From IMG/VR virus record IMGVR_UViG_3300022074_000004: 64,000 bases of DNA. The stretch is one strand, 5' to 3'. Positions 3,262 to 59,754 of the stretch are shown piece by piece; the stretch's first letter is position 1, and each line of letters opens with the position of its first letter. Source of the stretch: a virus. The translations under genes and the position numbers were made by a program. The notes below the pieces were generated by a model. The model saw only the letters and a list, made by a program, of their open reading frames with translations. It ran no database searches and was not told the origin of the DNA.

Positions 3262-3283
3262 TAAAAAAGATATCAGTAATAAA

Positions 3284-20000: not shown

Positions 20001-23000
20001 TCTTACTACAACCACTCTTAATAATGAAGTTAGCGTCAGCATTGATGCAACTCCTGCAAACACTGCTTCTACAGTTGTTTCAAGAGATGCAAATGGTGAT
20101 TTTGCTGCTAATGCAATCACTGCACCTAACTTCCACGGTCTTGCAGATCGCGCTACTAAGTTAGAGACTGCTCGTGCAATTGATATCACTGGCGACGGTG
20201 TTGCTGGAGCAATCAGCTTCGATGGCACTGCTGATAAGACACTTAACTTTGTTCTGAATAACGTCAACCCAACTACCACTGGTCAGTTTGGTGACAGAGC
20301 ACACGTCTCTCAGATCACTGTTAACGCTAAGGGTCTCATCACCAACGTAACCAACGTTGCTATTTCTACAAGCATTAGTCTCGGTTCTGACGATGCAGGT
20401 GCTGGTGTAGTTGATCCTCTGACACAGAATCTGTCAGTCTTGGGTAGTGACTATATCGCAACTCAAGTCAGTGGAACTGACTTCACAATCTCCCTGAAGG
20501 GAACTGCTGCTAACGAGGCAGATAAGGCTGTTGTAAGAGATGCTTCTGGCGATTTCGCTGCAAGAAACATCACCGCTACAGGAGAATTCCTTGGCAATGC
20601 AACTACAGCAACCGATGCATTCGGACTTACTGAGTTCAGAAAGCTCGAACTTGATGGAGACGTTAAGGGCGATATCCTGTTTGATGGTACTGCTGATGTA
20701 GTCATCAATACAACCATTCAGCCTAACTCCATTGAACTGGCTACCGACACAGTTGGTAACTACGTTGCAACTCTCGCTGACATGGGTCAGTCTGATATCA
20801 TTGTTAATGCTTCAGGTACAGAAGATGCTGCTGTAACTGTTGGACTTACAACAACCGGAGTTGTTGCTGGTTCATACGGAACAAAGGGTAACTTCCCAGT
20901 TATCGAAGTTGACGACAGAGGTCGTGTTCTCTCCATGGGAACTACTTCAGTATCTACAGTCCTTAACATGACTGCAGACAGCGGAAGCGATGATGTTGAT
21001 CTTCTCGATGATGTTCTGAACATTGAAGGTGGTACAAACGTAACCACAACTGTTAGTGATAACAACATTAAGGTTGACCTTGATCCAGTAGTTGACGTAG
21101 CAACATCTGTTACTGCACCTACATTTATCACAACTGGTGAAGCAAATGCAATTGCTATCACTTCAGATACTATTGCTGGACCAGAGGTATTCTACCTTGA
21201 TCCAAATTCTGATGATGGCCCAACTGGTAAGATTGTTATCAAGGGTGACCTTGAAATTAGAGGTACTACAAACACTGTTAACTCAACTGAGGTTGAAATC
21301 GGTGACCACAACATTATCCTTAATGCTGCTGGTACAACTGATTCTCAGGCAGACGGTGGTGGTATCACCATTAAGGGTGCGGTTGACAAGACTTTCGTCT
21401 TTGATGCTCTCACTTCTTCTTTCAAGTCTTCCGAGAATATCAATACTAAGGTTGGTAAGGTCTACAAGATTGGTGGAACAGAAGTTCTCAGTGCAACCAC
21501 ACTTGGTGCTGGTGTAATCAACTCCTCCCTGGAGACAGTTGCTACAATCAATACTGGTGTTTGGGAAGCAACTCCAATCAATGATCTCTACATTGATACT
21601 ATTGATAATGCAAACAAGGTTCAGATTTCTGCTCTTGATATTGATGCTGGCACAGAAGTTGGCTCTCCAATCGCAGACGATGATCTGATGATCCTTGACT
21701 CTGGTGCAAACGGCACTAACGTCAGCATGAAAGTTGACCGTATGCCTGTTTATACCTTTAGTAAGGTTCATGGCGACATCCTTATTGATGCAGCCGGTCT
21801 TGCTACTGTTCAACCAGATTCTGTTGCTCTTGGAACAGATACAACTGGTGTATTCGTTAAGTCTATCAGTGACAGCGGAAACAACGATATCGTAGTTGTT
21901 GACGGTGCAGCTGAAGATGGTAACGATGTAACTCTGACACTGACAGAAACTGGTGTAGCTCCTGCAATCTATGGTTCTACAACTGAGATTCCTTTCTTCC
22001 AAGTTGATAGCAAGGGTCGTATTGTTTCTGCTGGTTCAACTCAGGTTGATACAACACTGGATGTTTCATCTGATATCGGTTCATTCACTGTCGATCAGCA
22101 AACTGCTGTTCTTTCAATTGAAGGTTTCGACGGAGAACTCAAGGGTGTTGCATCTAACGGTGTAGTTGTTCTTGGACTTGAGCCTACTGGTGTAACTTCT
22201 ACAAGCTATGGTTCTAAGAGCCAAGTTCCTGTACTGGATATCGACTCTAAGGGTCGTATCATGTCTGCTACAACAACTGAAATCTCTGAGAAGCTGACTG
22301 TTACTGGAGACACCGGTTCATCCGATGTTAACCTGCTGACAAGTTCACTCGCTATCGAAGGTGATTCTACATATATCGATTCACTTTCTGATTCAGATAC
22401 TGTAAGTCTGTCTATCCGTGCAACTTCTGCTAATACTGCAGATATGATCGTTGCTCGCGATTCTAATGGAGACTTCTCTGCGCAAAATATCACTGCTAAT
22501 CTTCTCTCTGCTGATGTTGAGTCCGTTGGAATTTCAACATTCAACGAGTTTAGAGTTAACACCAAGATCTATGACTCCACAGGTGCTTCCGGTGGTGAGA
22601 AACAGACCATTGGTATTGACGTAGCAACTGGTAATTTGATCTGGCAGGATCTGACTGATATTCTCCCAGCGACAAGAACAACTGATTCTAGAACTGCAAC
22701 TGAAGGTCAAACTGACTTCGTATTTACATACAATCCAAACTACCTTGACGTATTCGTCAACGGTGTTAAGTTGAGTACTAACGAAGTAACTGCTGCTGAT
22801 GGATTTAATGTTAAGGTTCTTGAGCCTCTGTTCGAAGGAGACATCGTTGAATTCCATTCATATGCAACTGCTGGTGGTGGACTTGGTGTTGTAGATGCTC
22901 TGTCAGATCTTTCTGATGTTGCTCTTGCTGCTTCTGCTGAAGGTCAGGTTCTCGCATTCAACGGCACACAGTATGTCAACGTATCTAGCGTTGATCTGCC

Positions 23001-26000
23001 AGGAAGCGTAACTGCTGCATCTATTATTTCTGATGCTGACATTACTGCAACCGCTGCTGTTAATGCTGCAAGTGCTGTTATCTCTGGAAACCTTTCTGCT
23101 GGTTCTCTGACTCTGAGTGGAGACGCTGCTGTAACTGGAAATATTGTTCCTTCTGCAGATAACGTTTATGACCTTGGTTCTCCTACAGCAATGTGGAAGG
23201 ACGTATACATCGGTCCTGGATCCTTGTATGTTAATGGTCAGAAGATTGTTGAGGCTGACGGTGCTGATAACATCATCCTTTCTGCTTCAGACGATCAAAA
23301 CCTCGTACTTAAGCCAACTGGAACTGGTGACATTGAACTTGCTCCAGGTGGATCAGGTGCTGTTCAACTGAAAGCTCCACTGCAAATCGCTGCTAACACC
23401 AACATCCTGAGTCAGGACGGTGAAGCTGTTGTATTCGCAACAGGTGTTGCTGCTTCTACAGTTTCTGGTAAGGACGGAGACCTCACCCTGAGTGGTAAGG
23501 CTGGTACAACTGGAATCGTTAGAACTTCTGGCGATCTTGCTGTTGCTGGAGATCTGACTGCAACCAGCGTCACTGCAGACATTGATGCATCTAACCTTAG
23601 CGGTACTGTTGCTTCTGCAAGACTGGGTAGTGGAACTGCTGATGCTTCCACATTCCTGAGAGGAGACGGTCAGTGGGCAGTTGTTGATTCAACTTCTCTG
23701 ACAGTTAGTGGTGTTGCTGTTGTTCAGGCTTCTGCCTTCGGTCTTAACATCGATGGCGATACAGTTGCTGATACAATCAAGACATCAACTGGCGGTCTGG
23801 AAATGACCGATGCAACCATCTCTGGTACTGGTGACATTATTGTTGATCCTAATGGTGACAACAGTGTTAGTGGTGCTCTGAGAATTAAGGGTGACCTCGT
23901 TGTTGATGGTAATACTACAACCGTTAACACCAACGAAGTTTCAATCGCTGATTCTGAGATCCATGTTGCTTCAGGTGCTGCAACTGATATCCTCACCCAC
24001 GGTGCAGGTATCAAGTTTGGTAACAATAAGACAATCGCATACAACTATGACTCTAAGTCACTGAAGTCTAGCGAGCATGTCGAACTTGCTTCCGGTAAGA
24101 CCTTCATGATCGATGGATCTGAAGTTCTGACTGCTTCTACCGTTCTCGGTAAGTCAATGCCTACAGGTGTTGTTGTTGGTGCATCAGATGCACAAACTCT
24201 GACATCTAAGACAATTGATGCTTCCGCGAACACAATTAGCAATATCGCTAATTCTTCACTCGTTAACTCCACAGTTTCCTTCGGTGGTGTTGAACTCGCA
24301 CTGGGTGCAACTGATGCAACTCCTGCGTTCAACCTTGCTGATGCGACAAACCTGCCTACAACATCTCTGTCAGGCACAATCACCAACGCACAACTTGCTG
24401 GTTCTATCTCTAACGATAAGCTTGCAAATAACACCATCTCTGGACACGCTCTGGGCAGTGCCCTCAGCACATTGACAATGTCCACAGGTGCATACTTGAC
24501 TGGTGCTGCCACCTATACTGGTGCTACTGGTGCTTCATTTGCAATTTCACTGGAAGCTTCTTCCGATGCAACTGCAGATAAGGTTGTTGTAAGAGATGCA
24601 AGTGGCGACTTCGCTGCTGGAATGATCACCGCTAATTTGACCGGTGACGTAACAGGTAATGCCGATACAGCTACATTGGCTGATGATGCAATCAATGCTG
24701 CAAACGTACAGGTTGATTCTTCTGCTGATGCTGATGCAGTACATTACATGATGATGACCTCTTCTGCATCCGGCAATGTCCGTGCTAAGAGTGACGCTGG
24801 TATAACCTACAACCCATCCACAAATACCCTGACTGCAGGTGCATTTGTTGGACCAATGACAGGTGACGTAACAGGTAATGCTGATACAGCTACATTAGCT
24901 GCAGATTCAACTCTGTTTGCTGGTGAAGTTAAGGCATACTATGCTACTGCATCTGCACTTTCCGATCTGGAAACTACAGTTGGTCTCGTAACCTTCTCTG
25001 GTGCATACGGCGATCTGACTGGTGTTCCTACAAACGTTTCACAGTTTGCAAACGATTCTGCATATCTGGTATCTACAGATACTATTGATAATGCATCTGA
25101 AGCTGCAACTGTTAGCGTTGCTGCTGATAACGTCAGCAATACTGAGAGACTGGTAACATTCGTAGATGCTGCGACTGGCTTCCAAGATCTCAATACTGAT
25201 GTTGAACTGACCTACAACCCAGGTCTCGATAGATTGTCTGCAACTACATTCAAGGGTGCTCTTGAAGGTAATGCAGCAACAGCAAGCAAGCTTGCTTCAC
25301 CAGTAACAATCGCTGGCGTTGCATTCGATGGTTCTGCTGATATTGAACTTCCTGGTGTAACTGCCGCTGGTTCACAAGATACCACTGGTAATGCTGCTAC
25401 TGCATCTGCTCTGGCACATACCGTTACAATCGGTGGTCTTTCAACTGATCTCGCATCTGGAACATCCCTGGATCTTCCTGGTGTAACAAGTGCTGGTAAC
25501 CAGAACACCTCTGGTAATGCCGCTACTGCAACAGTTTCTCTGACTGTTTCTGATGCTGCACAGCCTGCAATCACATCTGTTGGAACTCTGACAGGTCTGA
25601 CTGTATCTGGTGACGCTGAAGTTGGTTCAAACCTGACTGTTGTTGGTGACCTGACTGTTCAGGGCAACACTACAACAATCTCTTCCAGCAACCTGGAAGT
25701 TGTTGACGCTAACATCACCGTTGCTAAGGGTGCTGCTGATGCTACCTCTGCTGATGGCGCTGGATTGACCGTTGATGGTGCTGGTGCAACATTCACCTAT
25801 GCATCTATTAACGATACTTGGGTTGCTAATAAGCCTATCGCTGCAAACATCACTGGCGATCTGACAGGTAACGCTGACACTGCATCTAGTTCTGATGCTT
25901 GTATCGGTAATTCTGCTACAGCAACTGCGCTTGATCATACAGTTTCAATTGGTGGTTTGACCACTGATCTCGCACCTGGTGCTTCTCTCGACCTTCCTGG

Positions 26001-28398: not shown

Positions 28399-30708
28399 AT
28401 GTCTATTAAAATAAAAGGTAATCAAATAATTGATGCGTTAGAAAATATAAGTGTAGCAGGTAGTGTAACTGCAGCGACTTTAAGTGCAAATACGATTAGT
28501 GCAACTTCTGTTAATGCAAATGCAAGCACGGCAAGTTTAGCTGCAGATGCCACTAAGCTGAACGGACAGTATGCTGCATATTATCTTGACTATGACAATC
28601 TTGCTAACACCCCAGCAATCCCTTCGACAGTTGCTTCATTGAGCGATTCTGGTGATTATGCAACTACAGCTTATGTGACAAATCTTGTCTCTACTAGTGT
28701 TGGTGGTATCCAAGGATTTTCTGGCAATTACTTAGATCTGACAAATAAGCCATCAATTCCTTCATCCGTTGCTGAATTAAGTGATGCCTCTAGTTATGCT
28801 ACAGTCGCTGCTTTAAATACTGCAATTGCTACAAATGCATCAAGTCATTTCTCTGGATCATATAATGATCTCTCAAATAAGCCAACAATCCCATCAACTG
28901 TTTCTGAATTAACTGATTCTGCTGCATTTGCGACAGTTTCATACGTAGATACTGAGATTTCAGATTTAGTTAACGGTGCAGATGCTGCTCTTGATACCCT
29001 TAAGGAACTTGGAGATGCACTTACATCTCAGGGAAATGCTGCAGCAACACTCACAACTCTTGTTGGTACTAAGTTAGATGCCACCGCATACAACGCATCT
29101 GATGTTCTGTCAAAACTCAAGACCGTTGATGGTGCTGGATCTGGACTTGACGCAGATGTGCTCGATGGTCAAAGTGGTGCTTATTACCTCGACTATGCCA
29201 ACTTTACTAGCACACCAGTCATCCCTTCAACAGTTGCAGAACTTTCTGACAATACAAGTTATGCTTTAAAAACTTATGTTACTGCTGCTATCAATGCTCA
29301 AACGCTGTTCTCAGGAGCATATGCAGACTTAACTGGAAAGCCATCTATCCCCTCTAAGGTATCTGATCTTACAAATGACACTGGTTTCCTTGTTTCTTCT
29401 GATACAATTTCCAATGCAACTAATGCAACTAATGCAACTAATGCTACCAATGCAACTAATGCAACAACAGCAGCGAATGCAAATAAGTTGAATGGACAAT
29501 TCGCATCATACTATAATGATTATGATAACCTTACTAGCGTTCCAACAAATGTAGCGGCTCTTGCAGCAGGTACTCTTCAAACATCAATTCTTGTAAACAA
29601 TTCTGACTTTGCAACTAATGCATCTGTCACTGCAGCTATTGACAACCTGATTGGCACAGCTCCTGCAGTAATGGATACTCTTGGAGAAATTGCTAGTGCA
29701 TTGAATAGTGATTCTTCATTCGCATCAACAATGGCAACTCAGCTTGCTACCAAGATGCCAAAGGCTGGCGGCGCATTTACTGGTGCTGTTACATCATCAT
29801 CTTCAATCAGTGCTACTGGTGGATTTGTTGGTGATATCGAAGGCGATGTAACTGGTAATGTTACTGGTCAAATCACTGCTGGAGCAGATAACACACTTGG
29901 TGCTCTGACAACTGGTGCTCTTGCTGGTACAGAAGATGTAAGAGTTGATGGTACAATGCGTGTCACCGGACAACTTCACGTCGGTAATGCAACCATTACT
30001 CTTGATCCAGAAACAGATTCATTGGATCTTAATGGTATTAAACTTGAGAAAGATACAAATGGAGATATTTCATTCAAGGATAGACAAGGTAATCTGAAGA
30101 AGGCTAAGTTCGCTGAGTTGGAAGTTGGTGGTAGACCACTGTCAAGACAGCACCCAACAAAGGCAGGTAAGAACTTTACAGAAACTGATGTTCAAGGTGA
30201 TGTTGAAGGAGATCTGACCGGTAACGTTACGGCAACAACTGGTACTTCTGCATTTAATGAGATTACTGGTGCAAAAGCAACTGTTACTGAACTTGGCGTA
30301 ACTGGTGGTGCTTCATTCCAGAGTTTACTTAAGGAAGAAATTGAAGTTAAAGAAGCTGCACTTGCTTCTTCAGATATCAATCTTGAAGATGGTATGATGC
30401 ATATGTTTACAACACAAAATTCATCTGCTGGAACACTTAACTTCAGATATAACGCATCAACAACTCTTGATTCTAGAATGTCTGCTGGTGAGACCTGTGC
30501 GGTAACCATTGTTTCTTCTACAGGAGCATCCGGTTTCGTTAGTGCTGTTAATATCGATGGTGCTGCTGCTACAGTTAACTGGTCTGGCGCTGAAGCTCCT
30601 GAGGAAGGCGGAGAAACTGGGTTCGATGTAATTACAATGCAACTTATCAAAACAGCTGATGGATGGACAGTTCTTGCTGCTGTTAACAATTTTGCACCTG
30701 CTGCATAA
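28399..30708 (+). CDS. tail fibre protein (769 aa), paralogous to the distal part of the 3720-aa fibre
   Basis: MSIKIKGNQIID N-terminus; FSG.Y.DL.NKP.IPS repeats; A.AALDTLKEL; DGAGSGLDADVLDG; C-terminal LNFR...IDG....V.W.G..AP..G..G.DV.T...IKT domain. Confidence 0.88.
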   Translation: MSIKIKGNQIIDALENISVAGSVTAATLSANTISATSVNANASTASLAADATKLNGQYAAYYLDYDNLANTPAIPSTVASLSDSGDYATTAYVTNLVSTSVGGIQGFSGNYLDLTNKPSIPSSVAELSDASSYATVAALNTAIATNASSHFSGSYNDLSNKPTIPSTVSELTDSAAFATVSYVDTEISDLVNGADAALDTLKELGDALTSQGNAAATLTTLVGTKLDATAYNASDVLSKLKTVDGAGSGLDADVLDGQSGAYYLDYANFTSTPVIPSTVAELSDNTSYALKTYVTAAINAQTLFSGAYADLTGKPSIPSKVSDLTNDTGFLVSSDTISNATNATNATNATNATNATTAANANKLNGQFASYYNDYDNLTSVPTNVAALAAGTLQTSILVNNSDFATNASVTAAIDNLIGTAPAVMDTLGEIASALNSDSSFASTMATQLATKMPKAGGAFTGAVTSSSSISATGGFVGDIEGDVTGNVTGQITAGADNTLGALTTGALAGTEDVRVDGTMRVTGQLHVGNATITLDPETDSLDLNGIKLEKDTNGDISFKDRQGNLKKAKFAELEVGGRPLSRQHPTKAGKNFTETDVQGDVEGDLTGNVTATTGTSAFNEITGAKATVTELGVTGGASFQSLLKEEIEVKEAALASSDINLEDGMMHMFTTQNSSAGTLNFRYNASTTLDSRMSAGETCAVTIVSSTGASGFVSAVNIDGAAATVNWSGAEAPEEGGETGFDVITMQLIKTADGWTVLAAVNNFAPAA
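29413..29466 (+). repeat. 9-bp tandem repeat (AATGCAACT)x6 encoding (NAT)6
   Basis: Seen directly; two units carry synonymous changes. Confidence 0.92.
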
Positions 30709-45800: not shown

Positions 45801-48800
45801 AAAACCCCAATTCAACTGATAGGGGTATTGTTAAAATGTATAAATTAGCTCCTGGAGCTGTTGAAGGAAACATTACGGAAGACATATCTGTAAGTGAAGT
45901 TACTTCTAACGCAGATGCTCAGAATGTTTCTAGCATGGGATTAGACCAATATCCACAAGTTGGTGCTTTATTGCATTCGGGTGATTCCGCACCAATCGGA
46001 GTATCTGATACATTAACGACATTAACAGATCCTGCTATAGAAGCTATTGGCGCAGAATGGCAGACAATTTCTACTCAATTCGTTGAGAGAATTGCTGATA
46101 TTGAAAATCTTGGCAATGGAGTTCTCCTTGCTGGTGGTGGCGATTATGGTCAACATCATACTAGTACTACTACTGATCGTAATTGGAATACTCATTCCAG
46201 AAAACTGTTCAGATCCGATGATAACGGAAAAACTTGGACAATTTCTGACCCAGCAAGAGCATTTGAACCATTCTTCTCTGATGAATCAGTTGGAACTTTT
46301 GGATCTACTGGTAACAATTCATATCATCATGAAAGAGAATCCGATACTTATCATTCAATTTGTAACTTGGGTGGTGGTAAGGTTCTTGTTTCTGTTGGTA
46401 CAAATGGACATCATGGGGATCAGTATTTCATTCCATACATTCTCAAGTCAGATGATTATGGATTGACCTGGACCGAGACTCATCCATTTGCTAACCCTAA
46501 TCACCTGCATGAGGATCAAAGTTACTATAATGAACACTATGTCTATCCAGAGAGAATTTTTGGAATTAGTTGCATGACACATATTGGTGGTGGTGTTGTT
46601 CTTGCTGGTGGTGGTGTTGAATTTATGACCAGTGGTTATACTGGTGATCTAAGAGGACAACTCTCTAGATCTACTGATTATGGAGAAACATGGACTAAGG
46701 TTAGATATCTACCTTCGACACCTCAGCTGCAAGGAAATGATATTTTCTTCATTGAAAAACTCAGCAATGGTAACACCTATATTGGTGTGAATTATATTTC
46801 TCATACTAAGTTGTTTAAGTCAAGTGATGATGGTGTAACTTGGGAACGTCTCACCTCATGGCCCGAACCATTCTATATGCCTCAAAACAATGGAAACATG
46901 CAAGTTAGACTTATTACTGGTGTAACTGAACTTTCTAACGGTAGGGTTCTCGTATCAGGCGGATCACCAATTGGAGACACTACAACAAGCTTTGGTGGTA
47001 TATTCTCCTTTATAGATGCTGCTGCCTTTGAATCTTGTGACACGACTGCAACTGTCCAAGTACCTAGTTCTGATTTTATCGTAAAAGATAAAACTAATAT
47101 CACCCACAATAGTGGAACTGCTGGGGCGTATGCACCACCAGGACTTACAGGTGGAATAGATTTCCCTTCTGGACAGGGAAGTTCAAATGATTCTAATGGA
47201 ATATTTGTATCAGCTTCCCATGACATTACAACTTTTGATGGTGATTTCACTGTTGAATTTTGGTTTAATGCAGATAACTTTGGTCCAGATGCTAACGAAT
47301 ATGGACTCAATGCAATGGTATTACTTGATGGCAGACCACATAATGGAAATGGAGCTCAGAATCTTGGTTCAATATATGCTAACGCTAGCGGCAGTGGTCA
47401 AAGTAATTTCACCCTGAGATATCATGCAAATGGTTCTGATGACATTAGCGGAAATATCAGTATGAGTTGTGGTACATGGAATCATGTTGCTCTTGTAAGA
47501 CATAATGGAGTGATAACTCTATATGTTAATGGAACTGCTGATGGCACACATAATGAATCCCAATCAATAGTTACTAATCCTGATAGACCATATATTGGTG
47601 CTTGGGGTTACGTTGAGGGAATCAACACTTTTGCATTTGATGGCAAGATATCAAACGTCAGAATTGGAACTACTGCGGTTTATACTTCTAATTTTACTCC
47701 ACCAACTTCAAATCTTTCTGTAATTGCTGGTACAACGTTCTTAGGACTTCAGTCCACTTCAAGTGCAAATGCATATCAATATGCACAAGGTACTACAGTG
47801 GACGGGTTAGGATTCAGTATATCAATTGTTCATGATTATGATGGCAATACTGAAGATAACAGTCGTTTTGATAGCAACCTTGCAGTTGTTGGTAAAGAAG
47901 CAAGTGATGTCCCAGGACTTGTATTTGCTATAACTAAGACCGACCACTACCCAGATAGTATGAGAAGTGCCGGTGTGTATAAGTCAACAGATTATGGAAT
48001 GAATTGGTATCATATACGTGGAGAAGCGGAAGACTTAACAGTATCAATGTATTCTGTTCCTGAATATATTGGTGGTGGTAGAGTACTTACCGGTACTGCT
48101 GTTAGGAATAGTGGATTTGCAAACGCTCGTAATGCTTTAGGTGGTCAAATCTTAATCTCTGATCCTTTCCTTGATAGTGCAAATGATCCCGCTTCACATG
48201 TTTCCATTGATTCTATGGGTGGCGATAGATCTATCTTGATTGATCTTGGTGCTGATAATGTTGCTGGACCAGGAGATGATGTATTCATCCAATTCAGTGC
48301 TCCTGTTTCAGAGGCATCTGGTATGGAAGGCAAGTTAGGTTTCTATGATAAGGATGGTCTTGAAATTATCTCTGGACCACATGCTGATGGTACAACTGAA
48401 ATTAAGATTGCGAATTCTGTTGGTGGTACTATCACTGATTACCAAGCAACACTTCATCAACCTGGTTCATATGTTTACAATAGCAATACCGTGACCGCTA
48501 GCGCCCAAGCGGGAGCAGTTACTACTGGTCTGAGTGATATTAAGCATATTACTGATGGTAGTATTCAGACCTATTGGGAAACATATGGTTTCTATGGCGC
48601 TTCTTCTGCACAAGAATGGGTTGCTTTTGGAAATCCAATTGATGCTACAAGTGATACAATTTCTCTCTATATTTCCTTCACTTATGCAAATTATGTGAAT
48701 AATCCAAATAGTGTAAATGTATTCCTTGAATTTGATGACGGATCACAAGAGAATAAGCTAATAACTAAGGATGCGACAACTGGTAACTTCGATCAGCAGG

Positions 48801-49186: not shown

Positions 49187-49218
49187 TCTAGGTAATGCCT
49201 AGTAAAAAATTAACGAAA

Positions 49219-49521
49219 ATGGCAATTAAAGTAAAGGGTAATCAGATAATTGATAATAGTGAAAATATCAATATTTCTGGTGTTTGCACGGCTATGGAAT
49301 ATCATGGAGATGGTTCCAATTTGACTGGAATCTCCGCTGGTATTGGTCCAAATGATAATGTTAATACAACGGGAATAATTACTGCATCTTCATTTAGAGG
49401 GGACGGATCACAACTAAACGGTGTTGCAGCTAGTATTCCATATCAAATTCATATTTCCCCAAATGATCCTTCCAATGCTCTTGGTAGTGATAATGATCTT
49501 TGGATTAAATACGAAGCCTGA
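49219..49521 (+). CDS. short fibre adaptor (100 aa)
   Basis: MAIKVKGNQIID N-terminus (shared with 7497 and 28399, supporting this start over 49195); two GDGS.L.G repeats; ends GSDNDLWIKYEA. Confidence 0.8.
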   Translation: MAIKVKGNQIIDNSENINISGVCTAMEYHGDGSNLTGISAGIGPNDNVNTTGIITASSFRGDGSQLNGVAASIPYQIHISPNDPSNALGSDNDLWIKYEA

Positions 49522-49566: not shown

Positions 49567-52500
49567 ATGACAAGTTCATATGAAAATCTACCACCAACTA
49601 GTGACTTGGTAGATGATTCAGATGTTATGTTTATGCTTGGAACCAGCACACAGACTGCGCTTCCAGATGCATATGGCTCTATGGCAATTGAGAGTGTTGG
49701 TAATGTTTCTGTAGAAACCGATAGTCCATTCTCAAGTGCAGGACGTTATATTGGATCTTTAACTAGACCAGAGGATATTCTGTCTTTTGATTCTGGTTTT
49801 GGTAAAATTGTTTTGGGAACAGATGGTTCTGCCCATATATACAATTCTACACTTTCTCATGAGACTAGTGTAAGTCCTTCTGATTCTACTTCAGGATTTG
49901 GTAAGAAGATTGTAATAGCATATGATAGAATATATGTTGGTGCAGACTCTTCTATTTTCATCTACAATTTGGATGGAACTGGAGAACAAAAAATATCAGA
50001 GACTGGAATTGGTGCCAACTTCGTGGTGCAGTCTGATAGAATTCTTGCTCCAGTAGTAGGAGGAAATGTTTCACACATATATCATATTGATGGGTCTAAT
50101 AAAGTCTCAACTTCTGCTTTTACTAATGCAACCAGTGATTATGGTGCATATGGTCTCGGAGTTTGTGAAGCTTCAAATGGGTCGTATAAATTTGCATATG
50201 TTGGGGATCCTGGTTATAACGGTGACAGAGGTGCTGTTTTAGCAATTAATTTAGAGATATATTCAAGTCCGTATTCAACTTTAATCACGGGAGAGGTCAG
50301 TAATCAGCTGGGTATTAATATTCCTGATATTAGAAATTCAGGTTCTAATTGGAATGGACGTATAGGATCCGCTGGTGGCTATCTCCCGCAGGGTAGTAGA
50401 TTTGGTACTGTTATTGCATGTGAGGACTTTGCTGGAGTTTATGGAAACTCTACTGGATTTGTTGCAATTAGTGCTCCTTTTGCAAACTCCATGTACGATT
50501 ATGATCATGGCGATGATTGGGATTATGATACGCAAATGCCTTGGGGGAAAACTGACGCTACTAGACTTTACAAAGGTTGCGTATTTTATTTCAAAACTGA
50601 AGCTGGCTACACCAATACCAATAGAGATAGAATTGGATTTAAAACCCAATCCAATCAAAGCAATTTTGTTATCTCATCGGTTGGTCATGTAAACAAAGTA
50701 AGTCAGATTTCGTCACATGTTGACTATCATAGCTTTGGTGAGTCCATGGCATATAGAGATGGTAAATTGATAGTTGGTGCTCCTTATGATGGAGAAGCTG
50801 GTGCAAGAGCTGGTGCGGTCTTCGTATTTGATACAGAAGCCGAAACCATGGATGTATCCTCACGACCAGCTACTGAAAGTGAAGAATATCATTTAAAGTA
50901 TAACCCAGTTCGTTTCGTAAATAAATTTGTTGGGGACGAATTTGATAATACCACTGAGAATTATGGACTTTCTGTTGCTGTTGGTGGAGAGTTAATGCTA
51001 TCAAAGGGTAGTGATAATAATGTTTATGTTCATTCAACTGAGGGATTCTTTGCAAAAGATTGGTATGGAAATTATGTACCAAGTGATGAGAAGGTAGTAG
51101 AGGCAGATTCTGGTAGATCTGTAGGGGCTGTAAATGACTCTGAAGCTGGAACTGCTGTATCTGCAACCGATACTAAATTGTTCCTGTCTGTTCCAAAACA
51201 TAATGAAACTGGTGGAGTTCATGTTTTTAATTTTTATAAATCTTTAAATGTATCGGAAGTAATCACTATTCCATATGCTGGAAGTGCATATGATCCAATG
51301 GATATAGATAGTGACAATGATTTAGTGGCAACTGTTGATTCGTCTGGTGCAATAACATTAACTGCATTATCAACAGGAGTGGTACAAACAACCATTAATT
51401 CTGGTGTATCTTCTCCCATAGAAATTTCTATAGGTAGTGGCAGAGTTGCACTTACAAATTCTTCTGGATTAGTAAAGGTATATAATACTAATGGATCTTT
51501 TGTAAAAGATCTTTCCGATGGAAATTCAGGTTCTGATGTAAAGATTTCAATAGATGGATATATTGGTACATCTTCTAAAACTGAAGGAACTGCACATATA
51601 TTTGATTTAGATGGAACAAAATCGACTACTTTTACTAGTGTCGGTGGAGATGATATAAAATTAACTGACAGTCATATTTTCATTGCAGATTCATCTGCAA
51701 ATAGTATTCATCAATATAATAAAGATGGTTCATGGGGACTTGTTAGAACAATTACAAATGCTGAGCAAGATTTTGGTAAAAGCGTTGATGCAAATAGCTC
51801 TTATTTAGTTTCTGTAGCTAATAGCATCCTTTTTGTGTATGCACTTTCTGATGGATCACTTGTAAGCTCAACTACAGTGTCGCCATCATCACAAGTATAT
51901 TCCGATAATGGTGTTTCTCAAGCCGAAGCATTAGCCTCTGATTATACCACTAGTACTCCAGTAACATTAACTGCTTCTGCTGGAAAAATAGAAATCGATA
52001 TATTGAGTGCCCCAGTTGGAGAATTTTCCGGACCAACTGGAGCTAATGTTGACCCAGTTGATATCGGTGCAGGGATTAATGGAATTCCTGATATTTCAGC
52101 AGTTGATTCATCTTACAAAGATAGTAATGGAGATTTACTTCACAATACGCATTCCTTCATTGGATTTGATGAATCGGTAAAAATAAATGCTTCAGATAAT
52201 ATAACTCTTGATGCTTCTACCGGATCAATTGTTTATAGCTCATTAGGTGCCGCATACTTTGATCCAAAGATGGAATTTGGCAAGGTATATAAGGTTACTG
52301 TTGATGTGGAAAGAATGGATTCCACTGTTGAGATGAAAACATGTGACGTTACAGGAGTTACACAGGGAGCATCTTCCAAGCTTGCTATTGGTCCTGCTGG
52401 AAAAACAACTGGTTTAATTACTCCACCGAGTGCTGATCAAACATATTTGGCAATTGACAATATATCTGCATTTGATCCAAATAATGTAACTGCCACTGTT

Positions 52501-55500
52501 AATAATGATATCAATACTGCATATTCAATCAGCTTAAGAAATTCATCACACACCCACATTGGAGGTGGATATGTGTGGGAAGTTACAAATATTAATGCAT
52601 GCGAAAGAACGGTAGATGGCTCAGGTAATTGGATTCCTAAACTGTCTGAGATTGTTAAAAAAGATACAAGTGGAAATGTTTTATTAACTATTCCAAACCC
52701 AACATCAGCACAAGCATTATATACTTTTAATAGTTGGAATAATACCACTTTTAAGACTGAATCTGACTATGGTTTAAGTCTTTTCGGTAATAAAATGAAG
52801 TTCTGGTCTGGTGGATTTATCACCGAATGTCTTAATGATGGCTCATATTTTGATGGTGGTTGTTTAATCGCTTATGATTTTGATGGAAATCAGCTGTGGA
52901 AAAAGAGATATGGTAATGGCACTGCATCAAATGTGATAGACTATGGTAGTAATGTATATCGTCATTTGTGTTCGCACAATATTCATGATATTGATGAAGA
53001 AAATGGCATTGCAGTTGTAAGTTATGCCACGAGTGTATCCCAATCATCGGGGTATGTCTCTGTATATTTCGCTTTCGCTGTCATTGATCTTCAAACTGGT
53101 AATCAATTGGGGAATGCGATAAAATCAAATATTCTATGGTATAGATTCTCCTATAGTAATTATGAAAATTTGGTCAAATTTGCTAAGTGTGCAGATGGCC
53201 ATATTTTAATCAGCCATGGAGTTCGAGGCTATAGTGCTGAACCAGGAACTTTTGAAGTATTTGAGTGGAATAGTGCTACAAATAGTGCGACCACAATACG
53301 GAGAGCTGATAATTCATATGCAAGAAGGGATTTGCTGCCATATGTCTCTACTAGTGCTTCTGCTGAGGAGAAAAATAGACAGGATTATATGGATCCTGAA
53401 ATGACAAACCCACATCATATAAAATATCAGTATGAATATGTTCAACATGCATCGCAATTCTATGGCCAATCAAGAGCAGAATGGGCGATAAGCATGGGTG
53501 GTGGAAGAATTGCAGTTCCTGTTAGAAATGCTTACATTTATGATAATGATCACTCTACACAGACCTCTGTTGATAAAGGTCGTAAGATGCTTTTAATGAC
53601 CTATGATCTAGATCCTGCTAATGATGTATATTTTGAGCATGGCGATACCACCTCAGCATATATTAGGGAACCACTTGGATTTGTTACTAAAGATGGTTTC
53701 TTTGTCAATCCTACTAGTGGAACATCGGACTTCCAGCCTACCAAATATAGCGGTGGGGCCAGGATGAATCACCTGAGTTACATTGAAAATACTAGTGGTT
53801 TCCTATACACCGGTAAAGCCAGTAGCAATACCACATATACTGTATACGACACAGAAACCCTGACAGAACGTGATACTTTTGTATTTAATCCCGCAAATAA
53901 TGATACTCAACTTTCTAGCGGAAGTGTTGATGAGTTCGAGCAATTTTTTGCAAATAGATATATTTTGAAGAGTTATGACCCAACCAATGGTACATGTCTG
54001 TTTACTAACTTAAGTAATGTATATGAGGGCAGAAAAGCAAATCAAGCTGAATTTGTGACTGCTCCAGCCAGTGACACTGGTTACTCGGCTATTACGGGTT
54101 CATATGCAGAACCAAACGTATTGGTTACTATCACTTGCCCACCTCCGGATGATATGGCAAGTACTATTAAGTCAGTGTCCGTTCAAGAATTGCCAGTATC
54201 TACTTCAAGTTCTTACGCTATTGATTTTGCAAATAAGGAATTTTCTCTCGAATTTGATGCAAAAGTTGACGGAGGAATTGATTGGGCAAACTTCGACCCA
54301 AGTATACCCCCACCAACATTAACTCTCAACTGGGGTGTTAGACACTATACAAGATCCTGGTATGCAAACTTCTCAACTGGAGTATCTAAACTTTATTGGG
54401 TTGGTGATGATGGGACTAAAGTCCAAATTAGATCCTATCAGACTAGTTCACAATATCAACCTTGGCAATCTTACAGCGAAGATTTAGGGGCTCTTGGTAT
54501 TTCAGGAACTGGATATTTTGCTATTGGTTTTACTCAACCTCGTAACTACAATTGTGACCCTCAATACGATGGATTCCAGTTGGTAAATGCAGATGGGGAC
54601 ATTGTATACGATTATAAACCACAAAACAGAGGAACGTTTGGAGCAGGTTTGGGATTTAGACAAGCTAATTCTAGTACCAGCAGATATTCTCCTGGCGGCG
54701 GTAATAGTGTAGATGACATTCCAACAAGTTGGAAAACTACTAATCTTGCGCAGGGAAGTAGTTCTGGTACATTTAACTATGATGCTTATGGTACTCCCAC
54801 TTATTACAGCGGACCTTCAGGTAGCCTTATTAGTGGGTCTAATGGATATTATATTTATTTTGAACCTGGATATTATCCACGTTATTCTTCTGGTGGTCAA
54901 TATACATTCTGGTTTAGAACTGAAGGAACTGTTAGCTCGACAGATCCAACTGCAACAAGTTATGTTTTCCCACCAGAACCACATTTCCTTATTGGTGATG
55001 ATAGGGAGAATTCTTCTGATCCTGGATGGGCATTATCTCTTGAGTGGAAAGATAATAGTCAAGATGAAGTTGTAATTTCATATGGATCTTCTGATGAGTT
55101 ACGCATTCCTTTAGGTTTCCATATATTTGACGCAAATCCATCTACTCATACATTTAAGCTTTCACGAGATTCTTATGATGGAGATTTAGTACTTTCTGTT
55201 GATGGATCGCCTGTATATACCGAGCCCTCTCGTGCCAGTGGTGAGAATTCTATTGATTTGCATGCAAGTCGCAATCTGTTCCTTGGTGGATATGATGGTG
55301 AACTGTCAAACTTATCAATCGAATTCCCAGATGGACCTAGAGTAAACAGAACAGCTATTGATCTCGCTGATTCTGCATTCTTGGTTAATGCCGATAATGG
55401 ACCATATATTCATAGAACTAATGATACATCATATTATTATGATATAAATGGAAAGATTAGACATACTTTGATCAGTCAAAGTAAAAACCCATCTTCATAT

Positions 55501-58500
55501 TATGGAATGAGTGAAGGCAATCATACTGTTATGAGAGAAAGCCCAGATGTTGCTTCAGTTTATGAGCCAACAGCAAATACTCCATCACCAGCGTCTACTT
55601 TGGCTGCTAATGGTGATGATATGGGCAAAGTTAGTATTTTAAATGCAGACGGGGAACTTATTAAAGATGTCACTCAACTGTCTTATGCAAGTGAGAGTGG
55701 TGATTATCCATCTACTTATACTTCAAATAGTTTTGGCACATCAGTTTCAGCTACTGATACTACATTAATGGTTGGCGAACCAGTAGGCAAGAATGTATAC
55801 GTATATGATGGTGAAGGTAATCCATTAACAAAATTATCTAGCGATACAGATAATTTTGGCACATCTGTGGCTTCAAATGGAATGGCATATGTTGTTGGAG
55901 CTCCTAAATTCATAGAATATGGAAATACTACTGTTGAAAGTATTGAGGTTAAGAGCTCTACTCCTTCTAGTGCAATTACTGAATTTTCTGAGGATAATGG
56001 ATGGCAGAAATATAGCAATCTTCCAAATCCAAGCTATGATTGGTGTGATATAGCATATGGAAATGGAGTTGTGGTTGCTGTATCTAGATTAGAAGATGCC
56101 AATTATATTCCAAATGTAGGGGACATGGTTTTCTCTACTACTAATTTGGGAGCTCTTCCGGGGGTTGATCAAGGAAACAATAGTTATCTTGTAAAGGAGG
56201 ATATAAATTGGGATATTTCTAATATGATTGGAGGAACATCTGCTAATCTGCCTTACAACTGGGCTCCATCTACAGATGGTAACGGTAACTTTGATGGCAG
56301 AAATAATGGCTGGAAAGATCACTTTGGTTGGACAGGAAATACTGGACACTTGGCATATTCCACTGATGATGGAGCAACTTGGTCAACTATGACCGATCCG
56401 AATAGCCTTGGATATGATTTTGTGTTCAACTGCATTGCCTTCGGAAAAGGTGGTGATATTCCAAATGGTAAATTTGTTGCATTATGTCGTGGTGGCAACA
56501 GAATTTATACCTCTGAGGATGGAATTAATTGGGAATCTAATGACAAACCTCGGGATGGTTCGCCTGAAATGCCATATGTGAACAATTACAATAGGGGCAC
56601 AATCTACGGCACCTATAACGCCTCCGGTGCCTCCCTTTTCAATGTAATGTGGGATGATATTTATTGGTGTCCTGTTAGAGAAGAATTTATTGCTATGGGA
56701 TATGCACCATATCCTTCAATCGATAGAGATAAGTATGATGCGACTGGATTTAATCATTGGTATGAGTATTCATATATATACAGAAAAGTTTCAAAAGATG
56801 GTATTACTTGGTCTCAAATGAATGTTGGAGGTGATGGGACCGTATATTCTGATGGCACTCGTGTCAGTACTGTATTCATGGATGCTAGCCTAAATGGTCA
56901 AAAAGTAATCACTGGTATACCACACTATCAGGGTAGTTCTCCAGATGGATATGTTTTACGCCACAAAAATGGTTCTGCAACTATAAGCAGATGGATGGAT
57001 ACGTCTGCTAGCTACAATCGTAGTATTATAGCAGATACTCTGCAACACACCTCAAACAAAGAATTGTTTGATTTTGCATATAATTATGCATCTGTTGACC
57101 TTGACAAGGTTATGGTTGCAGTTGGTGATGATACAATTTTATATTCTGTTACTGGTAGCAGTTGGATGCATGCAGATTTCCCATTAACACCTTTCTCAAA
57201 TGGTACAGCAAGAAAATCTGGTGTAATTTCTGGAAATGAATCTATTGGAAAATTCCGCACTGTAACATATGCAAATGGATACTGGTATGCCACTTGTGAT
57301 CCTAGCACTGCAAGCAACGGAACTACCACAGTATCAGGAAAAGACGCTTGGTCTCTTGACGGTAAGAATTGGTATTATGTATCGCAAAATACTCATTTAA
57401 ATGACATATTTAGAAATGTATCTTTCAGTGAAGGGAAGTACGTCTCGATTTATGATGGATATAATGGTGATTTTGCAATAACTGAAACACCTCGTACTCC
57501 TATACCTGTAACTACAATTACTCTTCCTGATGACCTTGTTCATAGACAATCTGATAGCACGCTACTCGGTGGATATACTTTCACTGGTTTCTTAAGTATT
57601 AATGATACTATTTCTTCATTAGATTCTAGTGCTAGTGGACAAGTTTTTGATATATCTGGAGATGAAATTGCTGTCTGGAATTACAGTGGTGATTTCTCTG
57701 GCCAGCCACTTAAACTGAGTGAGGCTGTAAGTGTATCTTCCGGTGCTGGTGGTGAGGTTAGTGTTTATAACACAGATGGTACTTTAAGAAGTACAATAGT
57801 TGGTGCTTCATATGAGAATTTCGGAAAATTTGTTGGTCTCTGTCACGATGTTGTTCTTATCACTTCAAAGGATCGTTTATTTGGATATGATCTTGATGGA
57901 AATCAATTGTACAATCTTTATTTTGGAGATTCTAAAGGTAATACCAAAATTAGATCATTTGCTACATCTGAAGATGATACAACTATTGCTATCGGATTAT
58001 ATGGTGATTTATGGCGTCAGGTTGATAGCAGCTCTTCATATTCTAATCATGAATTTGATGATGCAAATAAATTAGAGCAAACAAGTATTGGTTATGTAAA
58101 ACTCTTTAAAACATATGGAAGCGGTATTTCTCCTACAAAAGTCTTAAGGGCCAGATATGCCACTGAGGCTGATTACTTTGGTCATGATATTGCAATCAAT
58201 GATGGCAAGATAGCTGTTCTTTCTCCTGGTCGTGAATATGGCTGGGGTTCTGAAAATGGAGCTCCAAAAGCTAGAATCACTCTCTTTACTATAGACGGTA
58301 GATTCATATCCTCAATTGGAGGAAAAGAATGGACAAAATCATCACCTCTTGCTCTTGACAGTCCATTTGGTCAAGATGACAAACTTGCATTACTTGGAAA
58401 TTCATTGGTTGTTACTCATCCATCTAATGGAAACCGCACAGTTTATGCAGAGAGTGATTATGAATTACCTATTTCAACTGCTGGAGCACCATCTATAGGA

Positions 58501-59754
58501 TTTAATCCTGATTCACAAAACGGTGCTTATATGTCTACAAATAATCCAAAGACATTTAAAGTTACAGTTGGACCTGCCCAATTCGTTAGAGATTATTATG
58601 ACGATGGTATTGCTATTGAAAATAGAAATGTATACTATATTGATGGTGTACCAACTAAGCACAATCGTTATACCAGAACTGACAACAGCTACGAATGGGG
58701 TTATACAAGTGATGCAAATAGAACTACACTTGATCTACAGTTTGGTACTACACATATCTTCGATTTATCAGATCCGTCAAACCTTGGTCACCAATTTGAG
58801 TTACAGGGAATGTATAGTGGATTTGATAGAGATTGGGATAGCACAACATATCCACAACTTCCATACGTATTTCACGGCGATTGGGTTAAATACGGAGTTG
58901 ATGGAACTCCAGGTGCTCGCTTAGAGTATACTGTTCCTACAATAGCTGAAGGTGGAACCCCAGGTCAACCTGGTGCTTGGACTGGGGGCGGATATGTTTA
59001 CTGGAAGTGTGCTCTTCATGATGATGCAATGGGCAGAGGTGATTTTAATTTCACTACAGATGCTCCACAGGTGGAAGGATCGGCATTTGAATTTAGTGAC
59101 GCTGATGATTTCACTATTGAAGCTCAATTTAAACTTGAAAATACTAGCGGATACAAGTATCCCAAGTCAATGTTATTGATTGGTTCAAATAATGAGGGTG
59201 ATAATTATGGATTTGCCGCTATTTTAGAATCTGAATTTGATGAAGACGCAGAACTTCATATTCCTGCTAAGAGATTGAAATTTACAAATAATGGCCCAAG
59301 TGGTCTCGTATCGGATTGTTATGCAACTCTCCCAGATAATGACAATGAGTGGCATCATATTGTAATCATGAGATCAAGTGGCAAATTATCCATTATATAT
59401 GATGGTGTAGAAATTTATAGTAAATCTGATCTCCTTGTATATCCTCAAAGTGGTCCAATTTATATCGGTGGAACGCCTGAAGGATATCTAGATTTTGAAG
59501 GAAATATTATTAACATGAGAATATCCAGAATTCAGAGATATGACTCAACTGAAACATACGTATCACCTAAGAACGTATATGTGAAGATTAATGGAGAATG
59601 GAAAAATGTTGATGATATCTTCGTCAAGGTCAATAATGAATGGAAAAATGTCATCAATGATTCCTTGATTCCAAAAGTTGATGGTGGCTGGAAGAAATAT
59701 GATCCAGATGGATCTATTATTACACCACAAATTGTTGGTGCTGTGAAAATTTAG
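49567..59754 (+). CDS. giant multidomain virion adhesin (3395 aa): propellers, LamG-like, CBM-like, cupredoxin-like domains
   Basis: RBS AGGAG; FG-GAP-like repeats; YSTDDGATW/TSEDGINW/SKDGITW boxes; DFTIE...WHHIVIMR...IYIGG...FEGNI..MRI; C-terminal VKINGEWK repeats. Confidence 0.88.
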   Translation: MTSSYENLPPTSDLVDDSDVMFMLGTSTQTALPDAYGSMAIESVGNVSVETDSPFSSAGRYIGSLTRPEDILSFDSGFGKIVLGTDGSAHIYNSTLSHETSVSPSDSTSGFGKKIVIAYDRIYVGADSSIFIYNLDGTGEQKISETGIGANFVVQSDRILAPVVGGNVSHIYHIDGSNKVSTSAFTNATSDYGAYGLGVCEASNGSYKFAYVGDPGYNGDRGAVLAINLEIYSSPYSTLITGEVSNQLGINIPDIRNSGSNWNGRIGSAGGYLPQGSRFGTVIACEDFAGVYGNSTGFVAISAPFANSMYDYDHGDDWDYDTQMPWGKTDATRLYKGCVFYFKTEAGYTNTNRDRIGFKTQSNQSNFVISSVGHVNKVSQISSHVDYHSFGESMAYRDGKLIVGAPYDGEAGARAGAVFVFDTEAETMDVSSRPATESEEYHLKYNPVRFVNKFVGDEFDNTTENYGLSVAVGGELMLSKGSDNNVYVHSTEGFFAKDWYGNYVPSDEKVVEADSGRSVGAVNDSEAGTAVSATDTKLFLSVPKHNETGGVHVFNFYKSLNVSEVITIPYAGSAYDPMDIDSDNDLVATVDSSGAITLTALSTGVVQTTINSGVSSPIEISIGSGRVALTNSSGLVKVYNTNGSFVKDLSDGNSGSDVKISIDGYIGTSSKTEGTAHIFDLDGTKSTTFTSVGGDDIKLTDSHIFIADSSANSIHQYNKDGSWGLVRTITNAEQDFGKSVDANSSYLVSVANSILFVYALSDGSLVSSTTVSPSSQVYSDNGVSQAEALASDYTTSTPVTLTASAGKIEIDILSAPVGEFSGPTGANVDPVDIGAGINGIPDISAVDSSYKDSNGDLLHNTHSFIGFDESVKINASDNITLDASTGSIVYSSLGAAYFDPKMEFGKVYKVTVDVERMDSTVEMKTCDVTGVTQGASSKLAIGPAGKTTGLITPPSADQTYLAIDNISAFDPNNVTATVNNDINTAYSISLRNSSHTHIGGGYVWEVTNINACERTVDGSGNWIPKLSEIVKKDTSGNVLLTIPNPTSAQALYTFNSWNNTTFKTESDYGLSLFGNKMKFWSGGFITECLNDGSYFDGGCLIAYDFDGNQLWKKRYGNGTASNVIDYGSNVYRHLCSHNIHDIDEENGIAVVSYATSVSQSSGYVSVYFAFAVIDLQTGNQLGNAIKSNILWYRFSYSNYENLVKFAKCADGHILISHGVRGYSAEPGTFEVFEWNSATNSATTIRRADNSYARRDLLPYVSTSASAEEKNRQDYMDPEMTNPHHIKYQYEYVQHASQFYGQSRAEWAISMGGGRIAVPVRNAYIYDNDHSTQTSVDKGRKMLLMTYDLDPANDVYFEHGDTTSAYIREPLGFVTKDGFFVNPTSGTSDFQPTKYSGGARMNHLSYIENTSGFLYTGKASSNTTYTVYDTETLTERDTFVFNPANNDTQLSSGSVDEFEQFFANRYILKSYDPTNGTCLFTNLSNVYEGRKANQAEFVTAPASDTGYSAITGSYAEPNVLVTITCPPPDDMASTIKSVSVQELPVSTSSSYAIDFANKEFSLEFDAKVDGGIDWANFDPSIPPPTLTLNWGVRHYTRSWYANFSTGVSKLYWVGDDGTKVQIRSYQTSSQYQPWQSYSEDLGALGISGTGYFAIGFTQPRNYNCDPQYDGFQLVNADGDIVYDYKPQNRGTFGAGLGFRQANSSTSRYSPGGGNSVDDIPTSWKTTNLAQGSSSGTFNYDAYGTPTYYSGPSGSLISGSNGYYIYFEPGYYPRYSSGGQYTFWFRTEGTVSSTDPTATSYVFPPEPHFLIGDDRENSSDPGWALSLEWKDNSQDEVVISYGSSDELRIPLGFHIFDANPSTHTFKLSRDSYDGDLVLSVDGSPVYTEPSRASGENSIDLHASRNLFLGGYDGELSNLSIEFPDGPRVNRTAIDLADSAFLVNADNGPYIHRTNDTSYYYDINGKIRHTLISQSKNPSSYYGMSEGNHTVMRESPDVASVYEPTANTPSPASTLAANGDDMGKVSILNADGELIKDVTQLSYASESGDYPSTYTSNSFGTSVSATDTTLMVGEPVGKNVYVYDGEGNPLTKLSSDTDNFGTSVASNGMAYVVGAPKFIEYGNTTVESIEVKSSTPSSAITEFSEDNGWQKYSNLPNPSYDWCDIAYGNGVVVAVSRLEDANYIPNVGDMVFSTTNLGALPGVDQGNNSYLVKEDINWDISNMIGGTSANLPYNWAPSTDGNGNFDGRNNGWKDHFGWTGNTGHLAYSTDDGATWSTMTDPNSLGYDFVFNCIAFGKGGDIPNGKFVALCRGGNRIYTSEDGINWESNDKPRDGSPEMPYVNNYNRGTIYGTYNASGASLFNVMWDDIYWCPVREEFIAMGYAPYPSIDRDKYDATGFNHWYEYSYIYRKVSKDGITWSQMNVGGDGTVYSDGTRVSTVFMDASLNGQKVITGIPHYQGSSPDGYVLRHKNGSATISRWMDTSASYNRSIIADTLQHTSNKELFDFAYNYASVDLDKVMVAVGDDTILYSVTGSSWMHADFPLTPFSNGTARKSGVISGNESIGKFRTVTYANGYWYATCDPSTASNGTTTVSGKDAWSLDGKNWYYVSQNTHLNDIFRNVSFSEGKYVSIYDGYNGDFAITETPRTPIPVTTITLPDDLVHRQSDSTLLGGYTFTGFLSINDTISSLDSSASGQVFDISGDEIAVWNYSGDFSGQPLKLSEAVSVSSGAGGEVSVYNTDGTLRSTIVGASYENFGKFVGLCHDVVLITSKDRLFGYDLDGNQLYNLYFGDSKGNTKIRSFATSEDDTTIAIGLYGDLWRQVDSSSSYSNHEFDDANKLEQTSIGYVKLFKTYGSGISPTKVLRARYATEADYFGHDIAINDGKIAVLSPGREYGWGSENGAPKARITLFTIDGRFISSIGGKEWTKSSPLALDSPFGQDDKLALLGNSLVVTHPSNGNRTVYAESDYELPISTAGAPSIGFNPDSQNGAYMSTNNPKTFKVTVGPAQFVRDYYDDGIAIENRNVYYIDGVPTKHNRYTRTDNSYEWGYTSDANRTTLDLQFGTTHIFDLSDPSNLGHQFELQGMYSGFDRDWDSTTYPQLPYVFHGDWVKYGVDGTPGARLEYTVPTIAEGGTPGQPGAWTGGGYVYWKCALHDDAMGRGDFNFTTDAPQVEGSAFEFSDADDFTIEAQFKLENTSGYKYPKSMLLIGSNNEGDNYGFAAILESEFDEDAELHIPAKRLKFTNNGPSGLVSDCYATLPDNDNEWHHIVIMRSSGKLSIIYDGVEIYSKSDLLVYPQSGPIYIGGTPEGYLDFEGNIINMRISRIQRYDSTETYVSPKNVYVKINGEWKNVDDIFVKVNNEWKNVINDSLIPKVDGGWKKYDPDGSIITPQIVGAVKI

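Follow-up and report, generated by a model that had tools for sequence, protein, structure and literature searches.

The question raised by this locus is whether the two ends of a giant viral protein are halves of one and the same domain. In the window (the whole stretch of 64,000 nucleotides [nt] from IMG/VR virus record IMGVR_UViG_3300022074_000004), a single uninterrupted open reading frame (ORF) on the + strand, 49567-59754, encodes P0001, a protein of 3,395 amino acids (aa). The first-pass annotation of this DNA had proposed that P0001 begins with the start of a phage LamG module and that the remainder of the module resumes only near the C-terminus, behind a series of nested domains. As described below, aa 1-58 are likely, though not certain, to be homologous to the N part of such a module, whose core lies at aa 3173-3336. 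That the two pieces also form one LamG fold within the chain is, in our judgment, an evenly balanced proposition. The two pieces are as follows.

49567-49740, + strand, aa 1-58: putative N part of a LamG module of the phage type, with the PPT linker motif, the first strand (VMFML), and a hairpin that ends in SPFS; from the module profile, a sub-profile, and the joining test.
59083-59574, + strand, aa 3173-3336: LamG core (DFTIE ... WHH ... RIS), from Pfam, the module profile, AlphaFold2 (AF2), and VIA-align.

The two ends of P0001 match complementary parts of one LamG module

At the C-terminus, Pfam Laminin_G_3 (PF13385) matched aa 3175-3320 over positions 13-141 of its 151 (38.1 bits; cutoff, 27.6; E value, 2.1e-9). 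An exhaustive phmmer search with aa 2960-3395 gave 485 hits, and the best 150 of these, which were examined, were multi-module LamG proteins of uncultured phages aligned to the last 170-200 residues of the query only. For AF2, aa 2958-3336 were modeled with an alignment of trimmed modules from two relative genes with 19 and 12 LamG modules. The predicted local distance difference test score (pLDDT) was 70-90 over aa ~3170-3336, and VIA-align placed 156 residues of the modeled core on NanB CBM40 with a Z score of 15.3 and a root-mean-square deviation of 2.9 Å; two-sheet beta-sandwich folds of the CBM40, LamG, and pentraxin types were matched. The remainder of the LamG domain (AFEF/DFTIE...WHH) was therefore found near the C-terminus as proposed, although AFEF lies at nt 59083 (aa 3173) and not at 59053.

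To represent the whole LamG repeat, a 241-position profile hidden Markov model (HMM) was built from 200 modules. The repeat runs from a PPT linker through a first strand (LLLH type), a hairpin ending in KFG, and a strand pair (FDG and DYL) to the DFTIE...WHH...RIS core. This module HMM matched the core of P0001 with 89-93 bits, and its alignment to the full protein began at model position 66, with no N part directly upstream. The second-best region after the core was aa 9-57 (VMFMLG ... SPFS), at model positions 13-60. When a sub-profile of the N part was used, its top match across the 3,395 aa was aa 20-57 (5.4 bits; E value, 0.0012), and this score was equaled anywhere in the protein by 5 of 2,000 whole-protein shuffles. 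In addition, phmmer with aa 1-60 alone matched the N parts of modules in register, PPT motif included; the best match scored 13.0 bits (E value, 9.6e-4), and 13 bits were reached by none of 300 shuffles. These results bear out the proposed resemblance of the first residues to the start of a phage LamG module.

The first-pass annotation had also suggested comparing the spliced LamG chain with its fragments. When aa 1-58 were joined to the core, the chain was recognized as a single domain over model positions 13-219 with 115-118 bits, compared with 93-97 bits for the core alone, a gain of 21 bits. The two pieces matched complementary, non-overlapping parts of the module profile, and the only N-part match available for the core sits ~3,100 aa upstream of it. 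As a control, aa 1-58 were replaced by 2,198 other 58-aa windows from P0001 and nine other proteins of the window. For the control chains, the median score was 97.7 bits and the 99th percentile was 106.4 bits, and 117.6 bits were exceeded only by windows from the LamG module of the neighboring 6,098-aa protein. Direct-coupling analysis of 478 tandem modules for contacts of the N part gave a signal dominated by gap artifacts and by covariation between equivalent positions in adjacent repeats.

N parts and cores in tandem-LamG relatives

We examined where N parts stand in the 150 tandem-LamG proteins. All 663 N-part matches adjoin a LamG core, and 614 of them lie at most 80 aa upstream of it. 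The other 49 either trail the last core or are extra units located 81-134 aa before the next core. P0082, P0087, P0049, P0030, and ~25 other proteins end in a PPT linker followed by the first strand of a next module, and P0039, P0061, and P0134 contain extra stand-alone N-part units between modules. Because linker and first strand also follow the last core or occur between modules, the N element is able to pack against cores other than the one next to it in sequence; from these arrangements, the strand-hairpin element seems to pack on LamG cores to either side.

The strand pair between the two pieces

The joined pieces lack the strand pair that stands between hairpin and core in the repeat. 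Two features precede the core.

58492-58539, + strand, aa 2976-2991: candidate LamG strand pair SIGFN...GAYMST, from the filler scan.
58540-59082, + strand, aa 2992-3172: beta-rich block of ~180 aa, fold unassigned, containing a His...Cys-x2-His-x3-Met pattern; a rival candidate for the strand pair is formed by its last 17 aa.

In the filler scan, each of 3,102 18-aa windows was placed between the N part and the core. The gains had a median of 9.1 bits, a 99th percentile of 17.8 bits, and a maximum of 22 bits. Three parses compare as follows.

aa 2976-2993 (SIGFN...GAYMST): gain of 19.7 bits, rank 9 of 3,102 (top 0.3%).
aa 3156-3173 (contiguous with the core): gain of 17.0 bits, about the top 2%.
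aa 59-76: gain of 12.7 bits, unremarkable.

The missing strand pair is thus probably aa 2976-2991, as judged from profile scores. The proposal that SIGFN...GAYMST belongs to the split LamG gives the best-scoring parse, but the simpler arrangement with a single split, through aa 3156-3173, also scores in the top 2%. SIGFN itself starts at nt 58492 (aa 2976) rather than at 58468.

The 180-aa block had been described as a cupredoxin-like insert. Neither a Pfam match at E values up to 10, PF00127 included, nor a sequence match in the PDB was found for it, and none of the best 150 of the 485 phmmer matches covers it. In the AF2 model of aa 2958-3336, 211 residues without homologues, covering the strand-pair region and this block, stayed below a pLDDT of 50. 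The Cys, His, and Met residues of the His...Cys-x2-His-x3-Met pattern are kept in all variants, and one language-model neighbor cluster has Copper-bind in 40% of its members (score, 0.90; low recognition value, 1988). We treat the cupredoxin assignment as a lead only.

The gene, its copies, and its variants

The ATG of P0001 is preceded at 9 nt by an AGGAGA box, a good ribosome-binding site, and GC-rich terminator-like hairpins follow both the preceding giant gene and P0001. The protein is also present in independent assemblies of marine metagenomes (NCBI, JGI, ENA, and TARA). Four more full-length copies were found, with 96.6-99.9% identity and lengths equal within 3 aa. Because independent assemblies show the same architecture at 96.6% identity, this architecture is not an assembly artifact. 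The 90% identity cluster of P0001 holds near-identical copies and fragments only; beyond it, no full-length relative was found in the protein collection, IMG/VR, metagenome contigs, or phage GenBank.

We compared codons between 49567-59751 of the window and the most divergent copy, the 96.6% variant (L004:301-10494). In total, 74 synonymous and 113 non-synonymous codon differences were counted, and by region they are as follows.

aa 1-58: 3 synonymous, 0 non-synonymous.
aa 59-842: 21 synonymous, 31 non-synonymous.
aa 843-1529: 17 synonymous, 27 non-synonymous.
aa 1530-1925: 3 synonymous, 2 non-synonymous.
aa 2135-2636 (Asp-box propeller): 17 synonymous, 33 non-synonymous.
aa 3337-3395 (C-terminal tail): 0 synonymous, 0 non-synonymous.

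Non-synonymous changes cluster in the propellers and the unassigned region; aa 1-58, 1530-1925, and 3337-3395 are nearly invariant. The pattern on the binding surfaces looks like diversifying pressure. The counts for the N-terminal piece point the right way for constraint, but they are too small to serve as proof.

The core is followed by one further feature.

59575-59751, + strand, aa 3337-3395: C-terminal tail with three short (N)GEWK(N)V-type repeats (phrog_25859; E value, 3.4e-4; aa 3337-3378).

Among the aligned variants, the tail has a single difference (A to V near the C-terminus). A role as an attachment or trimerization element is possible.

Docking of the two pieces and its alternatives

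The explanation that best fits these results would make P0001 a giant virion-surface adhesin, of the fibre or whisker type, whose gene stands among the tail-fibre genes of an uncultured marine jumbo phage. Beta-propellers and lectin-type domains of the beta-sandwich kind would make up its body, and the two ends of the protein would be the halves of one phage-type LamG, with aa 1-58 supplying the linker, first strand, and hairpin and aa 3173-3336 supplying the sandwich core. In the simplest history, a small LamG protein would have taken up a large multi-domain block, in one or perhaps several in-frame insertions, at the tight turn that follows its hairpin. We infer that the halves still dock, so that the chain would close on itself, with the LamG at its base and the binding domains displayed as a single, very large loop.

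Several observations weigh against this reading. The N-part match is weak by itself (5.4 bits), the pairwise phmmer score was also reached by 1 of 142 natural 60-aa control windows, and hhalign with a 23-module alignment gave no alignment to aa 1-68 (probability, 0.2). The modeled core aligns almost end to end with pentraxin and CBM40 sandwiches, and 109 of the 638 LamG cores in the relatives have no detectable N part; for both reasons, the core may be stable alone. In aa 75-560, the ~8 blades seem to make up a contiguous propeller. The interior therefore may not be fully nested, chain closure would not be automatic, and part of P0001 may be arranged as beads on a string instead. Domain inserts catalogued so far are consistently smaller than their hosts (PMC13114784). 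The first-pass annotation had further advised a search for short orthologues, which came back empty: no orthologue with a shorter insert and no divergent orthologue was found by full-length and C-terminal word searches or in the protein collection, IMG/VR, metagenomes, phage GenBank, or the 90% identity cluster.

The alternative that survives best, although we rate it as unlikely, is that aa 1-58 are a true LamG remnant of one in-frame insertion or recombination and remain undocked. The core would fold alone, and the remnant would be kept for another reason, e.g., virion attachment or translation start context. A single insertion event yields complementary break points automatically; therefore, the complementarity of the two pieces does not prove docking. 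The low N-part score, the relative cores without an N part, and the nearly complete match of the core model to pentraxin and CBM40 sandwiches are likewise what an undocked remnant would give. However, an unused remnant should decay, yet aa 20-57 are the best N-part match in the whole protein. The N-terminal piece also has no amino-acid change in the 96.6% variant (a very small sample), and N parts never occur away from a core in the tandem-LamG relatives.

It is rather improbable that the N part instead acts in trans, docking on the LamG of another chain (a neighboring P0001 copy or the 6,098-aa neighbor), so that giant subunits would be joined head to tail, much as in strand donation. Such a plug is nevertheless a real rival to docking within the chain, because the N element always stands beside a sandwich, but not always on its N side, and because the core could stand alone. 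The linker and first strand that follow the last core at the C-terminus in relatives, or form extra units between modules, would fit an element of this kind, as would the poorly matched N part of the LamG in the 6,098-aa neighbor, whose alignment starts at model position 36. That LamG, however, keeps its own trailing linker and strand.

The least probable explanation is a chance resemblance of an unrelated beta-rich leader, for which one can cite the ease with which short strand-like windows of this beta-rich protein gain profile score (median filler gain, 9 bits; maximum, 22), the one natural window with an equal pairwise score, and the negative hhalign comparison; it is countered by the small number of shuffles (5 of 2,000) that reach the score anywhere in 3,395 aa, by the position of the match exactly at the N-terminus, by the rank of aa 1-58 as the top non-LamG window among the 2,198 controls, and by the best pairwise matches, which are all in register, PPT linker motif included.

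The interior of P0001

Between the two LamG pieces, the chain upstream of the candidate strand pair was divided as follows.

49741-52089, + strand, aa 59-841: FG-GAP-like blades, ~8 in aa 75-560 and ~5 in aa 570-790 (Pfam FG-GAP_2, blade HMM).
52090-54153, + strand, aa 842-1529: beta-rich region, fold unassigned (the CBM-like pieces and 546-aa insert of the first-pass annotation).
54154-55341, + strand, aa 1530-1925: candidate second LamG/ConA-like domain (weak Laminin_G_2, language-model clusters).
55342-55944, + strand, aa 1926-2126: FG-GAP-like blades before the Asp-box propeller (blade HMM, aa 2018-2113).
55945-57429, + strand, aa 2127-2621: closed Asp-box (Ycf48/BNR-like) beta-propeller with long loops (homologues, AF2, VIA-align).
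57430-58491, + strand, aa 2622-2975: FG-GAP-like blades after the Asp-box propeller (blade HMM, aa 2705-2746 and 2878-2919; weak FG-GAP_2).

Propeller blades had been proposed for the interior, and they were recovered. For the whole protein, Pfam FG-GAP_2 (PF14312) scored 32.2 bits (cutoff, 23), and for the fragment aa 1920-2135, it scored 29 bits. A blade HMM built from P0001 itself matched aa 81-183, 389-526, and 610-770, and further blades were located at aa 2700-2965. In tblastn, a virion structural protein of cyanophage S-TIM5 matched aa 84-252.

One interior unit, the Asp-box stretch, was modeled as a closed domain. For aa 2120-2650, we found 47 homologues with a YGNGKFVAV...SxDGxxW repeat, some of them in proteins with EPTP repeats or an Mtd_N domain, and five SxDGxxW-type motifs are present in the translation. 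Pfam BNR_2 remained below the threshold (E value, 0.059). The AF2 model has blades with a pLDDT of 70-90 and long low-confidence loops, and its predicted template modeling score is 0.50. In VIA-align, the model matched Ycf48 with a Z score of 13.4 (204 residues aligned) and virginiamycin B lyase (Vgb) with a Z score of 12.9 (residues 9-295 of its 295); for Ycf48, Vgb lyase, and sialidases together, Z scores were 11.9-13.4 over model residues ~8-500. A closed propeller between blade-bearing flanks is plausible as the expected look of an insertion. The earlier proposal of a ~501-aa BNR-like propeller splitting a further domain is consistent with the modeled closed propeller of ~500 aa and its blade-bearing flanks, which may belong to one propeller.

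In aa 1530-1925, Laminin_G_2 matched weakly at aa ~1835-1910 (E values, 0.038 and 0.086). The module HMM touched aa 1544-1568 with only 3 bits, too weak for a complementation scan. The nearest language-model clusters of this region are viral Laminin_G_3 families (score, 0.94; recognition value, 2449). At 396 aa, the region is ~200 aa longer than a usual LamG, which is consistent with an insert. A second LamG/ConA-like domain is probable here, as a lead only. A MAM-like block considered in aa 1575-1795 was rejected, as it had no Pfam support.

The first-pass annotation had placed a split second LamG-like domain in this part of the protein, interrupted by a CBM-like domain that is itself split by a 546-aa insert. 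The weak Laminin_G_2 matches and the excess length of ~200 aa agree with the former, but the CBM-like domain found no support of any kind: aa 842-1529 gave no Pfam match at E values up to 10 and have no paralogue in the window. When P0001 was compared with itself and with the window's other giant proteins, no paralogous domains emerged that would expose split domains. With regard to the proposed four-level nesting, deeper levels are plausible at the Asp-box propeller and in the over-long second LamG candidate, but the CBM-like level is unsupported.

Gene neighborhood

P0001 belongs to a row of giant ORFs on the same strand, which encode 3,720, 6,098, 3,395, and 1,013 aa and sit among tail-fibre-like genes, including several tail-fibre PHROGs. 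The cluster also encodes a sulfotransferase, a 2-oxoglutarate-Fe(II) oxygenase, and a 903-aa protein with relatives in phiCbK-like Caulobacter jumbo phages. The 3,720-aa ORF (17098-28260) carries a C-terminal Peptidase_S74 intramolecular chaperone domain (E value, 2.6e-13), which marks it as a predicted self-cleaving trimeric fibre and gives the cluster a virion-fibre context.

A single contiguous LamG module is present in the 6,098-aa neighbor at 47000-47760 (aa ~5396-5652), where the module HMM gave 108 bits. The N part of this module can be recognized only in part, with the alignment beginning at model position 36; upstream of the module there is a BNR-Asp box motif. Just upstream of P0001, a 108-aa ORF (49195-49521) shares an N-terminal IK(V/I)KGNQIID..ENI motif with a 769-aa tail-fibre-like protein (28399-30708). 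The 108-aa ORF also has a near-threshold match to a Chlorovirus glycoprotein repeat (26.2 bits; cutoff, 27), and it may be a small adaptor for P0001.

Implications and comparison with known systems

If the ends of P0001 form one LamG, domain insertion would have almost no upper size limit, with a host of ~220-240 residues tolerating ~3,000 inserted residues. The growth of giant phage adhesins would then be explained by one in-frame insertion after another, with a single anchoring domain kept intact. Annotators would also have to reckon with terminal domain "fragments" of giant proteins that can together make up a single fold. Should the ends stay apart, the sequence would still document a large, clean insertion event within a gene for a phage lectin. 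A more demanding version, which we consider improbable, has the LamG halves work as a clasp, either within the chain, which would form a closed loop of 3,395 residues, or between chains, where strand donation into the LamG of the next subunit would assemble giant fibres. If true, either version would reveal a new principle by which giant phage adhesins assemble.

The closest relatives of the module stand in tandem-LamG (PF13385) arrays encoded by uncultured phages, with, e.g., 19 modules in P0005 and 12 in P0013; N part and core of the same module family are recognizable in these proteins. In those arrays, the N part is never >134 aa from a core, whereas in P0001 the two are ~2,900-3,100 residues apart, and there is one module and no array. 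In the interior, aa 2127-2621 model as a closed propeller with SxDGxxW-type motifs, as in the seven-bladed Ycf48/BNR propellers; unlike these, the stretch matches BNR_2 only below the threshold, has long low-confidence loops, and lies inside a giant phage protein.

Lectin-type domains are inserted into phage tail and adhesion proteins, as in the "evolved" Dit/Tal proteins of siphophages and the nested domains of T4 gp18. Those proteins likewise grow by binding domains placed in loops of other domains, but the inserts there have 100-400 aa and comprise a single domain or a few domains. We know of no LamG host that closes a chain of >3,000 aa. Domain insertion occurs in 20% of multidomain proteins, and the architectures A1-B-A2 and A1-B1-C-B2-A2 have been catalogued from ECOD/AlphaFold, with nesting of up to six levels in cyanobacterial RNA polymerase (PMC13114784). 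In these nested architectures, as proposed for P0001, a host domain is interrupted by other complete domains. The proportions differ: the host of P0001 would have ~220-240 aa and its insert ~2,900-3,100 aa, ~13-14 times the size of the host. Moreover, the host pieces lie at the extreme termini, and therefore the whole protein would be insert. P0001 is probably an extreme case of a known domain-inside-domain architecture.

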